Sequence record: KT184313.1
Source of the DNA: Enterobacteria phage KhF1
Length of the DNA: 64,000 bases
Direction: 5' to 3' (one strand)
The number at the start of each line of letters is the position of its first letter. The stretch's first letter is position 1. The notes under the pieces were generated by a model. It was not told the origin of the DNA. It did not search any database and saw only the letters and a program-made list of their open reading frames with translations. Of this stretch, positions 8,239 through 47,005 are shown piece after piece. A program made the position numbers and the translations under genes.

Positions 8239-8448
8239 ATGAGCCACCGTGGAAGAACTCATGCAGCAATGATGAAAGGTGCTTCAAAGGAGACTATCAA
8301 GAATCGTAAGCAAAAGTTGTTTGAGAGAATGAACAGACTCATTGATAACACTCCCCTGTCTGGTGGTGAGAAAGTTTTCCTTAAAAGTAACCTTAAAAGC
8401 ATTGCACAAGAACTTATAGACATTGAATATTGGAGATATCAAAAATGA
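8239..8448 (+). CDS. hypothetical protein
   Basis: ORF track, 69 aa. Confidence 0.4.
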   Translation: MSHRGRTHAAMMKGASKETIKNRKQKLFERMNRLIDNTPLSGGEKVFLKSNLKSIAQELIDIEYWRYQK

Positions 8449-8663
8449 CACTTGCAGACGTTATTCAGCAACTTCATGATAACTGCTATACTCCAGAGCT
8501 GATTCAGGAGATGTGCATTGTAGTCATGCCTAGTAGGTTCGTAAAAACCTTTAACAGTGACACTTTAAGGTCTGCACACATTCTTATTGTTGAAGGTAAG
8601 ATTGCAAAAGACCGTACTGGAGTACTCAAAGGTGAACGTATTGATATTCTGGAGTTGCTATGA
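8445..8663 (+). CDS. hypothetical protein
   Basis: ORF track; start moved to ATG at 8445 overlapping previous stop. Confidence 0.4.
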   Translation: MTLADVIQQLHDNCYTPELIQEMCIVVMPSRFVKTFNSDTLRSAHILIVEGKIAKDRTGVLKGERIDILELL

Positions 8664-8795
8664 AGAAAATGTACAGTCTCTGGGGGAGGGTTGGTAAAGG
8701 TTTTGACTGGACACTTCTTCGTTCAAACGTTAAACGTAGTGAATTACCAGAACTCATCACTCACTATTTAAAAACATACAGAGAGGTAGATTATC

Positions 8796-43180: not shown

Positions 43181-43438
43181 ATTAAATCTTTTTAGAGAAC
43201 TTCTAAGAACCTAAGCAACAAGGTTCCACAACAAGCTGTAATAACCTTAGAAGCCCTCTAAAAAGACCTAAAAAGGTCTTTGCATAGTCTTGTTTAATCC
43301 GGTGACTAGAACCTTTGGAGAGCTTGATATTATCTCTTCTCCGTGACACCTACTAGGTGCTTTACTGTGCGTGTACGACAATACACGAGGGATACCAAAG
43401 CAACATCCGAATGAAGCTTGGCTTTAAAATCTTATTAG

Positions 43439-43539: not shown

Positions 43540-43622
43540 TTGGCATGGGACGGAGGAGTTGAACCCCTTTGAAACGGTTTTGGAGGCCGTTGCTCATGCC
43601 TTAGAGTCTTAACATCGTCCCA
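43540..43622 (-). tRNA. tRNA, atypical; possibly tRNA-Trp (anticodon CCA) with extended D region
   Basis: Acceptor GTGGGAC/GTCCCAT, T-loop TTCAACT, candidate anticodon loop CTCCAAA; about 8 extra nt in D region. Confidence 0.45.
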
Positions 43623-43842: not shown

Positions 43843-44088
43843 ATTAATCTTTAAAGACTCTCTTAGAAAGCCCTTAAAGATGCCCACCTTATTAATCATA
43901 CCGTGGGCGAGTACGCCAAATTCTTTGATGAGGGATTGGAAGACCTCACTGGTGTTTAGCCTATCAAGCTACTGCCAGAAAAACATTGTCGTTTGCATTT
44001 ATTTTAAATTTGCAAAATAGACGCTACGCAACGAAAACTAAGGTTACTATAAAGTGGTCACATCTCAATGTCAACAACTTTATTGAAA

Positions 44089-44246: not shown

Positions 44247-44322
44247 TTGGTAGAAGTGGAGGGATTCGAACCCATCGCCTGTCAGATTAAAAGTCTGCCG
44301 CATCACCATTCTGCTACACTTC
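44247..44322 (-). tRNA. tRNA-Lys (anticodon TTT)
   Basis: Acceptor GGAAGTG/CACTTCT, T-loop TTCGAAT, anticodon loop CTTTTAA. Confidence 0.6.
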
Positions 44323-44325
44323 CAT

Positions 44326-44469
44326 TAAATTATCTTTGTAGATAAGCTACCCAGACTTGCTTAAGGTCTGTAGCGATGTGCCTTGTTGGGTTTAAATCTA
44401 GAATTTACCCTTTCACCCTTTGTGGTCGCATACTCACAGGTAAGCTTAATAACTTATCTACAAAGATAA
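44326..44469. repeat. 19-bp perfect inverted repeat pair (AATTATCTTTGTAGATAAG) enclosing about 106 nt
   Basis: Arms at about 44326-44344 and 44451-44469 are exact reverse complements. Confidence 0.6.
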
Positions 44470-44470
44470 T

Positions 44471-44602
44471 TACCAGACCGTTGTTTATCATCTTAAGTGC
44501 TACCATTACACCAACTCGACATCTGCCGAGTGAAGGAATCGAACCTTCGCCTTTTCTTTACCGAGAAATAGATTGTTTAAGTTTTGCTGTAAACGGTCTT
44601 CT
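44471..44602 (-). ncRNA. tRNA-like domain in permuted (Y RNA-like / YrlA-like) arrangement inside a long closing stem
   Basis: On minus strand: T-arm GAAGG-TTCGATT-CCTTC, acceptor-like 7-bp helix ACTCGGC/GTCGAGT capped by a 4-nt loop, D-arm GTGT-AATGGTA-GCAC, CTTAA/TTAAG helix, outer stem AGACCGTT/AACGGTCT. Confidence 0.45.
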
Positions 44603-44615
44603 GTAAATTTGTTGA

Positions 44616-44752: not shown

Positions 44753-44829
44753 TTGGCGGCTACGATGAGACTTGAACTCACATCATCTCCCGTGACAGGG
44801 GAGTATTTTCTCCAGTTAAACTACATAGC
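44753..44829 (-). tRNA. tRNA-Asp (anticodon GTC)
   Basis: Acceptor GGCTATG/CGTAGCC, T-loop TTCAAGT, anticodon stem CTCCC/GGGAG, loop CTGTCAC. Confidence 0.7.
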
Positions 44830-44834
44830 CTTTA

Positions 44835-45589: not shown

Positions 45590-47005
45590 TTACCAGATAT
45601 AACGGTCAATCATTACTGCTTTGAGCATTACACTGATTGGGTCAAACTTCTCACCACCAAGCAGAGCTTTTAAAGTGGCTGGAGAGAACCCTGATACCAT
45701 TGCTACACCGTTATCCTTAACAGATACTTCGCAAGTACCATTACGGTTTGCTAAGTACCAGAATACCAGTTGTGGCATCTCATATCCAGCTTTTTTGTAC
45801 TTACTCTGAATTGCTTCAAAGTTTGTACGTCCGTTAGCTCCATCAACCTGATTGAACTCCATATCGGAGAAGATGATAAGCTTACTTGGCATATCTTTCT
45901 GAGTCAAGTTGTTTCTTTTACCTGTTTCAAGAATGCGGTCAAAAGCTGCTTGTAAGTTAGTTGAGCCATATTCAACGTGTCGCATCACCTGACGATGACG
46001 GTTTCGTAAATCACCACTCAATTCGATGAAATGAGGGTTTGTTGAATAAACCATTAACTCGTTCTTAAAGCAACCTGTATTGCGTTCTGCTACATACAAG
46101 GCAAGGGATACACCAATATCAAGGGCAGTGATTGAACCAAGATTCACCCAAGACATTGAGCTTGAAACATCAGTCATACACAGGATGTTTTCACCTTCTG
46201 CCATCCAGTTTGGTAGTGCTTTCCACTGCTCATTAGCAACATCTGCATTACCATACTTGATAGATTTAATCACATCGTATGGATAAACAGCACCAGCATT
46301 AATCTTAGTCTCGCCCTTTGATAAGGACTCAATGTAAGATTTGTAGCGTTCTCCATCTTTACGGTTAAAGAGTTTTTGGTAACGTGCAGCAGCAAGTGAA
46401 GGAATCTTACTGTAGTCGATATTACCAAACTCATTAGCAGAGATTTTTTGTTCAACTGTATCAGATAGTGCAGACAGCAGTGTGCGGTACTCTTTCTCAC
46501 TCAAGTTTGCAAACTTGCAGAAACGTTTTACAAACTGTTTGTGACGTGGTTTTACTCGTGGTAACCACTTAGCTGCTAAACCTGCTGTTGCAGGGTCTAG
46601 TAATGCTGCTTCTAAATGTTTGAAGGCATCTGTCTCGAAACGAGTACCTACAAAGATTTTGAAGTCATCAAAGCGACCAAGCTCTGCAATCTTATCCATA
46701 ATGCGAAGAACCTGCGTAGGTTCTAAAACTTTATCTTCAATCGCTTGAAGTAAAACAGTTCGGAAAGCTTTACGCTCACCCATACCTTCTCGTACATCTC
46801 GCATATGCAGTAAAATACGAACTGCAACATCAACATCCTCATGCAAAGCTTTGTATAACAAGTCTGGTAAGATTTCTACATTGCTACGGCTGGAACCAGC
46901 AGCTTTGTAAAAGTCCACAAGAGCAGACATTGATGAAGTATGGTTTACAGCACCATTTTCAGTTCGACCTGCATGAAGGTGCGCATGTTTAAATAATTCG
47001 CTCAT
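45590..47005 (-). CDS. von Willebrand factor A (MIDAS) domain protein with N-terminal helical domain
   Basis: MIDAS-like DVSSSM (DxSxS) at about residue 275 and downstream IIFSDMEF; N-terminal 270 aa unassigned. Confidence 0.65.
   Translation of the reverse strand: MSELFKHAHLHAGRTENGAVNHTSSMSALVDFYKAAGSSRSNVEILPDLLYKALHEDVDVAVRILLHMRDVREGMGERKAFRTVLLQAIEDKVLEPTQVLRIMDKIAELGRFDDFKIFVGTRFETDAFKHLEAALLDPATAGLAAKWLPRVKPRHKQFVKRFCKFANLSEKEYRTLLSALSDTVEQKISANEFGNIDYSKIPSLAAARYQKLFNRKDGERYKSYIESLSKGETKINAGAVYPYDVIKSIKYGNADVANEQWKALPNWMAEGENILCMTDVSSSMSWVNLGSITALDIGVSLALYVAERNTGCFKNELMVYSTNPHFIELSGDLRNRHRQVMRHVEYGSTNLQAAFDRILETGKRNNLTQKDMPSKLIIFSDMEFNQVDGANGRTNFEAIQSKYKKAGYEMPQLVFWYLANRNGTCEVSVKDNGVAMVSGFSPATLKALLGGEKFDPISVMLKAVMIDRYIW

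Follow-up and report, generated by a model that had tools for sequence, protein, structure and literature searches.

Why does a phage tRNA operon hold a long, perfect inverted repeat in one of its spacers? We addressed this question for a 64,000-nt stretch of Enterobacteria phage KhF1 (KT184313.1; hereafter, the window), in which the 19-mer AATTATCTTTGTAGATAAG occupies positions 44328-44346 of the plus strand and its exact reverse complement positions 44453-44471. The site lies within a minus-strand operon of 26 tRNAs, between tRNA-Asp (44754-44830) and tRNA-Lys(UUU) (44248-44323), and the surrounding 1 kb is 99.9% identical to Escherichia phage ECML-1 and 97-99% identical to wV8, VpaE1, and other phages (Felixounavirus). 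An earlier reading of the sequence alone (the original prediction) had reported a perfect 19-bp inverted repeat enclosing ~106 nt inside the tRNA cluster and had considered a chance origin unlikely. Both arms are indeed exact, 106 nt separate the two 19-mers, and the operon setting holds; only the positions given, 44326-44344 and 44451-44469, were 2 nt too low. A search of the 64 kb for further copies of the 19-mer, as had been proposed, returned the two arms and nothing else at up to three mismatches, with 0.05 copies expected from shuffles. Three identities had been suggested: a long-stem small RNA, a protein-binding palindrome, or a miniature inverted-repeat insertion. The first is borne out: the helix covaries, its G·U pairs are specific to one strand, and the interior is conserved. 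We assign a probability of about 0.6 to the reading that the element is a structured non-coding RNA (ncRNA) of ~145 nt, with the repeat as its terminal closing helix, that is excised from the tRNA precursor.

Closing helix and its compensatory changes

The repeat search extends the arm pair to 22 nt at 95%. As RNA of the minus strand, the arms are predicted to form a 24-bp helix (44328-44351 with 44448-44471) comprising 21 Watson-Crick and 3 G·U pairs. Folding the minus-strand transcript, a check called for by the original prediction, recovered the 24-bp helix with a minimum free energy (MFE) of -48.3 kcal/mol (z = -5.8). The helix and its downstream neighbor are laid out as follows.

44448-44471, minus strand: 5' arm (RNA sense) of the closing helix, AAUUAUCUUUGUAGAUAAGUUAUU (repeat search, fold, covariation)
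44328-44351, minus strand: 3' arm (RNA sense) of the closing helix, GGUAGCUUAUCUACAAAGAUAAUU, ending 4 nt before tRNA-Lys (repeat search, fold, covariation)
44324-44327, minus strand: linker UAAU (4 nt) joining the helix to G1 of tRNA-Lys(UUU) and belonging to the recurring leader AAAGAU(A/U)UUAAU (sequence, tRNA call)
44248-44323, minus strand: tRNA-Lys(UUU), the gene directly 3' of the element (tRNA call)

At 94% identity or higher, the element is present in 189 phage records. A diverged version occurs in Mooglevirus phages (Sf13, KPS64), phage fKMPT1, and IMG/VR relatives, where stem positions have been substituted in both arms (two U-A to C-G changes, a G-C to C-G change, and others) and each arm has lost 1 nt; between clades A and B, five stem positions are compensatory, in addition to the paired 1-nt deletion. 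Further lineages were reached through more distant relatives of the protein encoded upstream, namely the Pectobacterium phages Wc4-1, Arno18, and Arno162, a metagenomic phage (L089, lineage D), Yersinia phage P778 (L090), and L091. The resulting six Ounavirinae-like lineages each have a helix of 21-24 bp, interrupted 0-2 times, around an interior of 94-116 nt, while the 5' arms of different lineages agree at only 5-14 of 20 positions. In a composite alignment anchored by hand on the arms and a conserved hairpin, 17 of the 20 closing-helix pairs show both-sided changes, 95.6% of cells pair (compared with 30-41% after sliding the partners 1-3 columns out of register), and the observed covariation score was reached by none of 500 shuffles. 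G·U cells number 32 in the helix versus 2 A·C cells, and selection therefore acts on the tRNA-sense RNA rather than on DNA symmetry. Taken together, the comparison indicates that the repeat is the closing helix of a conserved structured RNA, kept by compensatory substitution.

Could the repeat nonetheless operate as DNA? Its 19-bp perfection and a sub-palindrome inside each arm, TTATCT-N4-AGATAA, which recurs nowhere beyond the two arms, would suit such a role. The sub-palindrome is confined to the window type and absent from types B to F; given that it is not conserved in related phages, it is incidental. The idea of a palindromic protein-binding site is contradicted by arms that diverge while their complementarity is kept, and by the asymmetry between G·U and A·C. 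The notion of a miniature inverted-repeat transposable element likewise conflicts with a single copy per genome at a fixed site beside tRNA-Lys in several genera, and with the lack of an intact empty site. The original prediction had recommended a comparison with relatives lacking the insert, and only one surfaced: L012 (IMGVR_UViG_2706796742_000001), in which a ~300-nt deletion within 8300-8760 joins the T arms of an upstream tRNA-like module and of tRNA-Lys. This recombinational event removed the acceptor hairpin and D arm of the module, the long-stem element, and most of tRNA-Lys(UUU). A DNA-level feature, whether a mobile element, a protein-binding palindrome, or a cruciform site, is thereby left with next to no probability.

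Other functions of the region were rejected as well. A 76-amino acid open reading frame (ORF) at 44376-44606 on the plus strand, antisense to the element and the upstream module, is recorded as a "hypothetical protein" in several GenBank Felixounavirus entries; it is broken in Sf13, carries the antisense-T-arm signature "EGIEPSPF," and is almost certainly spurious. A sigma-70 promoter or intrinsic terminator in the arms or in the repeated ACAGAAGACC motif was dismissed for want of consistent hexamers or U-tracts.

Constrained interior and position before tRNA-Lys

If the helix merely closed a loop of no consequence, the enclosed sequence would not need to be constrained. Three parts of the interior bear on this point.

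44352-44370, minus strand: hairpin CAGAC-CUUAAGCAA-GUCUG, abutting the 3' arm in a T-arm-like position (sequence comparison, covariation)
44441-44445, minus strand: GCUUA, 2 nt after the 5' arm, pairing with the loop segment UAAGC (44359-44363) to give a pseudoknot (comparison, covariation)
44373-44429, minus strand: variable interior, with a tentative helix of GCGA (44426-44429) and UCGC (44373-44376) (by eye)

The hairpin has a stem of 5-6 bp that covaries at four of five pairs and a 9-nt loop, C(U/C)U(A/U)(A/U)GCAA, that is near-invariant in the six lineages. Across lineages, the loop segment U(A/U)AGC is complementary to GCU(U/A)A located 1-3 nt after the 5' arm. Lineages A, C, and D have U-A as the middle pair of the putative pseudoknot, and B and F have A-U (counts of 6 and 5, respectively); the pairing reaches 7 bp in C and D. 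Deeper in the variable core, the tentative 4-bp helix covaries by eye (GCGA/UCGC in A, GAGU/ACUC in B, GCGG/CCGC in D) and surrounds a central hairpin at 44388-44410 with a conserved UCUAGA, as placed by the MFE fold and sequence comparison. In the resulting topology, the long terminal helix is coaxial with the hairpin and the hairpin loop contacts the strand that leaves the helix.

This is the topology of the tRNA acceptor/T-arm stack and elbow, although the element has neither a T-loop nor a D-arm consensus. The resemblance raises the prospect of a decayed tRNA gene inside a leader-trailer stem. Consistent with that origin, the hairpin is stacked on the 3' strand in the place of a T arm; the sequence CUUAUCU-A-CAA-AGAUAAUU of the 3' arm can be read as acceptor strand, discriminator, degenerate CCA, and trailer by comparison with the flank of a Pectobacterium phage tRNA-Asn; and other tRNA-derived pieces occur in the cluster. 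However, ARAGORN and Rfam recognized no tRNA, YrlA RNA, or other family in the element: Rfam 15 gave no match to it at E ≤ 1 in 7 kb or at E ≤ 10 in 351 nt, and neither YrlA nor tRNA matched 44324-44475 even at E ≤ 10. The 96-nt interior and the purifying and compensatory selection on helices and loop in six lineages are also unlike a pseudogene, and we consider this origin very improbable. A related proposal, that the hairpin mimics the anticodon arm of tRNA-Lys, was discarded because the stems do not covary together across lineages.

The position of the element is as constant as its fold. In all six lineages, the helix ends 0-5 nt before tRNA-Lys(UUU). In lineage D it extends to position -1, from which we infer that the leader must open before RNase P acts. 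Packing is tight on the other side too, where the closing helix of the upstream module overlaps the first two bases of the long helix. Two further tRNAs of the operon are preceded by comparable structures.

43181-43275, minus strand: long hairpin before tRNA-Leu(UAG), with a ~27-bp stem (fold)
43843-43885, minus strand: long hairpin before tRNA-Arg(UCU), with 16 pairs in the MFE fold (fold)

The first of these scores in Rfam as the plant microRNA precursor MIR473. Both hairpins and the element share the leader AAAGAUUUAAU, AAAGAU(U/A)UAAU.

Such recurrence would fit a helix that serves only as a processing or insulating hairpin, that is, an RNase III site or folding insulator with a functionless interior of ~96 nt. 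The same may be said of a helix whose sequence varies freely at a conserved length of about two turns, and of the survival of L012, which shows that the element is dispensable at least under some conditions. In Pectobacterium phages, moreover, the outer sequence of the repeat forms a leader-trailer stem around tRNA-Asn: AAUUAUCUUUGG / CCAAAGAUAAUU (L087 1132-1232, L088 1137-1237, L004 1086-1186 (-)) equals the outer 11 bp of the inverted repeat in the window. Against a purely mechanical hairpin stand the near-invariant 9-nt loop and covarying hairpin stem in six lineages, the complementarity of the loop to the 5' interior segment with its compensatory change, and an interior length held at 94-116 nt. 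Since a processing hairpin would not need so constrained an interior, we judge this explanation improbable.

Ro60-like protein and neighboring tRNA-like RNAs

Beyond the element itself, we examined the genes and RNAs encoded upstream in the operon, which are relevant to its possible partners.

45590-47005, minus strand: 471-amino acid ORF with DUF2828 and DUF7788, heading the tRNA operon (domain search, structure search)
45255, 45089, 44695, and 44606, minus strand: starts of the 5' strands of four bulged helices (repeat and fold comparison)
44470-44606, minus strand: circularly permuted tRNA-like module, directly 5' of the element (fold, comparison)
44532-44548, minus strand: T arm of the module, GAAGG-UUCGAUU-CCUUC, after an anticodon-arm-like hairpin
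44514-44531, minus strand: 7-bp acceptor hairpin of the module, ACUCGGC, loop A-GAU, GUCGAGU, with the 3' strand first
44497-44511, minus strand: D arm of the module, GUGU-AAUGGUA-GCAC, after the acceptor hairpin

The AlphaFold model of the 471-amino acid protein has a predicted local distance difference test score of 86.5. Searched against the PDB with Foldseek, its top 11 matches are all Ro60 over the full length (E ~1e-7, template modeling score 0.4-0.65), with 13-17% sequence identity to solved Ro60s; identity to the mycobacteriophage "Ro-like RNA binding protein" is higher, at 30-33% (E 1e-58 to 1e-75). The model indicates that the ORF encodes a Ro60 (TROVE plus vWA) fold. The DUF2828 family spans 709 phage records and frequently adjoins tRNA clusters. 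In L089-L091, a DUF5681 gene precedes the DUF2828 gene.

The element lies 1.1 kb downstream of this ORF on the same strand, within the distance (~4 kb) expected of a Y RNA, and could be a Y RNA proper, with the stem docking the Ro60-like protein and the pseudoknotted core serving as an effector-binding module. All characterized Y RNAs have a long stem joining the 5' and 3' ends, and each species has at least two of them (PMC4201824, bioRxiv 10.1101/312249); the 24-bp helix of the window, and the 21-24 bp of the six lineages, are such a stem. Aeromonas phages of the Aeh1-like group, which encode the same protein family, provide a parallel. Each of L056 (9844-10014), L064 (10010-10180), and L078 (9611-9780) has two consecutive tRNA-like RNAs, ~2.5 kb downstream of the DUF2828 gene, whose terminal helices measure 14 bp and 19-21 bp; in the long-stem RNAs, ~81 nt precede the T arm and the interior measures ~97 nt. 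In KVP40-like phages (L021, L022), tRNA-His is framed by an extended acceptor helix of 21-22 bp.

Recognition motifs argue the other way. The helix is perfect, and the window stem contains neither of the Ro60-binding motifs of Y RNAs, a GGUCCGA-type bulged helix or, in YrlA, GNCGAAN0-1G. The Sf13/KPS64 version does have GCCGAAG (GNCGAAG) in an internal loop, but most type-B phages have GCCGAUG (CGAU) instead, and the window type lacks a CGAA-type motif (CCACAAAG). Beyond the element there are better candidates for a Ro60-like site. The bulged helix N4-AGA-AGACC-NN / NN-GGUCU-G-N4' appears four times in the operon of the window with covarying outer and inner pairs, three times around 45-56 nt of AU-rich sequence and once around the tRNA-like module. 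Its invariant GGUCUGG resembles the Ro60 contact motif GGUCCGA (PMC4201824) and provides a lead to a candidate docking site only. In addition to the lack of an Rfam YrlA match, a covariance model (R1) built from types A and B of the element found no homologue in 65 non-Ounavirinae DUF2828 loci. Even on the Pectobacterium homologue, R1 scored at most 8-9 bits with filters off, its best match there being the tRNA-Asn leader-trailer stem. We regard a Y RNA proper as unlikely, though the setting makes some part in a Ro60-like/Y-RNA system plausible.

The module directly upstream of the element resembles a YrlA RNA. YrlA RNAs are described as carrying a T arm, the acceptor as a closed stem-loop, and a D arm, with a stem closing the 5' and 3' ends; in M. 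smegmatis, RNase P cleaves the YrlA, whose stem has 7 bp, and the RNA acquires CCA (PMC4201824, bioRxiv 10.1101/312249). The module shares this architecture, closed by the bulged helix UUAC-AGA-AGACCGU / ACGGUCU-G-GUAA, although the copy in the window gives no match to RF02553. Its acceptor hairpin exists in three fully compensated versions (ACUCGGC/GUCGAGU, ACACGUU/GGCGUGU, and ACCCUUC/GAAGGGU), the last of which (L017/L018) is followed by an encoded G-CCA after the 3' strand. The Thr(GGU) anticodon loop is perfect in Mooglevirus, carries C33 in most Felixounaviruses, and is reduced to 6 nt in the window; in phage ASO1B, tRNAscan-SE calls a 129-nt "tRNA-Thr" over the module. The module is apparently derived from tRNA-Thr(GGU). 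A strict pattern search of 80 loci with a DUF2828 protein added four unrelated lineages with permuted tRNA-like modules on the strand of the gene: L049, L082, and, with the module 100-200 nt upstream of the gene, L023 and L031. CCA is encoded in two of the four. The Rfam YrlA model matches the L023 module at 38 bits (E 7.5e-5) and the L031 module at 36 bits, short of the gathering score.

Additional tRNA-related sequences are found farther downstream. The spacer between tRNA-Arg(UCU) and tRNA-Ser(UGA) yields a weak Rfam match resembling tRNA-Sec (43547-43621, minus strand; 23 bits), possibly another tRNA-derived remnant, and contains a direct repeat of tRNA-like sequence (D4). At 43961-43996 (minus strand), behind a near-consensus sigma-70 promoter (44046-44074), lies a tag template like that of a transfer-messenger RNA (tmRNA), GCAAACGAC, which encodes ANDNVFLAVA followed by two stop codons; the peptide is kept with synonymous changes in Felixounavirus, Mooglevirus, and L089. 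The Rfam tmRNA and permuted-tmRNA models score weakly on this region (16 and 30 bits), which has no identified tRNA-like domain of its own. ARAGORN reports a permuted tmRNA in L018 by linking the permuted module with the ANDNVFLAVA tag across 750 nt. Such a two-piece tmRNA was judged unlikely, given the three tRNAs and the strong promoter in between and the lack of G3·U70.

Proposed release from the tRNA precursor and relation to known RNAs

How might a structured RNA embedded in a tRNA operon reach its mature form? Ribosomal RNAs are excised from stems formed by their flanking sequences. In the excised-RNA reading that we favor, the AU-rich helix of about two turns would likewise be a substrate for RNase III in the enterobacterial host. 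The flanks of the element supply the at least 20 bp of regular double-stranded RNA typical of such stems, with 21-24 bp and 0-2 interruptions. Cleavage of both arms would release the core RNA with a shortened stem, separate the upstream tRNA-like RNA from the downstream tRNAs, and free the otherwise fully paired tRNA-Lys leader for RNase P. In the processing of the B. subtilis small cytoplasmic RNA (scRNA) precursor, Bs-RNase III cuts both stem strands (PMC1935012); it is by analogy that we infer the RNase III and RNase P steps. The released RNA would presumably be stable and compact, its coaxial stem and hairpin and its pairing of loop with 5' segment imitating the acceptor/T-arm stack and elbow of tRNA. 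More speculatively, the element, the YrlA-like mimic, and the four GGUCUGG bulged helices may assemble in a ribonucleoprotein (RNP) around the Ro60-like protein. A fuller version, in which Felix O1-like phages carry a complete, hitherto undescribed Ro60/Y-RNA-type RNP system in the tRNA operon, is doubtful. It would consist of the DUF2828 protein, the four GGUCUGG helices, the permuted mimic derived from tRNA-Thr, and the long-stem RNA, the latter being a new class of tRNA-elbow mimic through which a host factor that binds tRNA or degrades RNA is recruited or blocked during infection.

Several observations weigh against the excised-RNA reading or parts of it. The composite alignment was anchored on the proposed structure, which inflates the pairing counts; the slid controls mitigate this bias, as do independent MFE folds of each lineage, which yield the same helices. 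Six lineages represent few evolutionary events. Support for the pseudoknot comes from one covarying pair, the pairing is not evident in lineage E, and one Felixounavirus variant (L013) weakens it. The stem has no recognizable Ro60-binding motif. L012 is a natural phage that retains a 98% identical Ro60-like protein without the element or tRNA-Lys. Finally, lineage D keeps the long-stem element and has no permuted module; the two are therefore separable, and a functional link of the element to the Ro60-like system is unproven.

Comparison with known systems helps to place the element. Like the Y RNAs that accompany Ro60/Rsr proteins (YrlA, RF02553; Yrn1 and Yrn2 of D. radiodurans; Yrl1/2 of Thermus phage phiLo), it has a long 5'/3' stem with a structured interior and a Ro60-fold gene ~1 kb away on the same strand, and its neighbor is a permuted tRNA mimic built like YrlA. 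The element is also of comparable size, at 144 nt against 80-130 nt. For a Y RNA proper, the nearest analogues would be D. radiodurans Yrn1 and the long-hairpin YrlB/Yrn2 RNAs. In contrast to Y RNAs, the stem of the element carries neither the bulged Ro60-binding helix nor GNCGAA, T and D arms are lacking, and the putative protein partner belongs to a DUF2828 branch distant from the solved Ro60s. The long-stem RNAs of Aeh1-like phages come close in layout, with a terminal helix of 19-21 bp, an interior of ~97 nt, a hairpin on the 3' strand, a DUF2828 gene a few kb upstream, and adjoining tRNAs. No sequence similarity to the element was found in them, and they keep canonical D and T arms, whereas the element replaces the D-loop/T-loop contact with Watson-Crick pairing between the 9-nt loop and the 5' segment.

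Phage T4 offers another precedent in rnaC (species 1) and rnaD (species 2), which are also small structured RNAs of a tRNA cluster, co-transcribed and freed by tRNA-processing enzymes, a step that is predicted for the element. T4 rnaC also folds with long hairpins; however, it has a canonical T arm, and the two T4 RNAs lie at the end of their cluster rather than before tRNA-Lys. Homology to them was rejected, as alignment detects no similarity in sequence or structure. The stems of 16S and 23S rRNA and of the B. subtilis scRNA precursor (the latter in PMC1935012) share with the closing helix flanks that pair over at least 20 bp to join the ends, with length kept and sequence free. In the present case, the embedded RNA is only ~100 nt, the helix is directly flanked by a tRNA and a tRNA-like module, and cleavage is predicted.

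Stable structured RNAs in phage tRNA clusters and long-stem RNAs linked to Ro60 are thus of a kind already known. Neither Rfam nor the literature searched describes this RNA family, its pseudoknotted topology resembling that of tRNA, or its constant link to tRNA-Lys; a literature search on DUF2828 and on Felix O1 tmRNA or ncRNA returned nothing specific. Felix O1-type phages are classical typing and biocontrol phages, and the tRNA-cluster stretch of their genomes has been left unannotated or bears a spurious "hypothetical protein." A conserved RNA family is now placed there, beside a YrlA-like tRNA mimic and a Ro60-fold protein related to the Ro-like proteins of mycobacteriophages. The role of phage Ro60 homologues, and of the odd stable RNAs of tRNA clusters, becomes testable in E. 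coli and Salmonella. This highlights that the spacers of phage tRNA operons are structured, selected RNAs and not filler.
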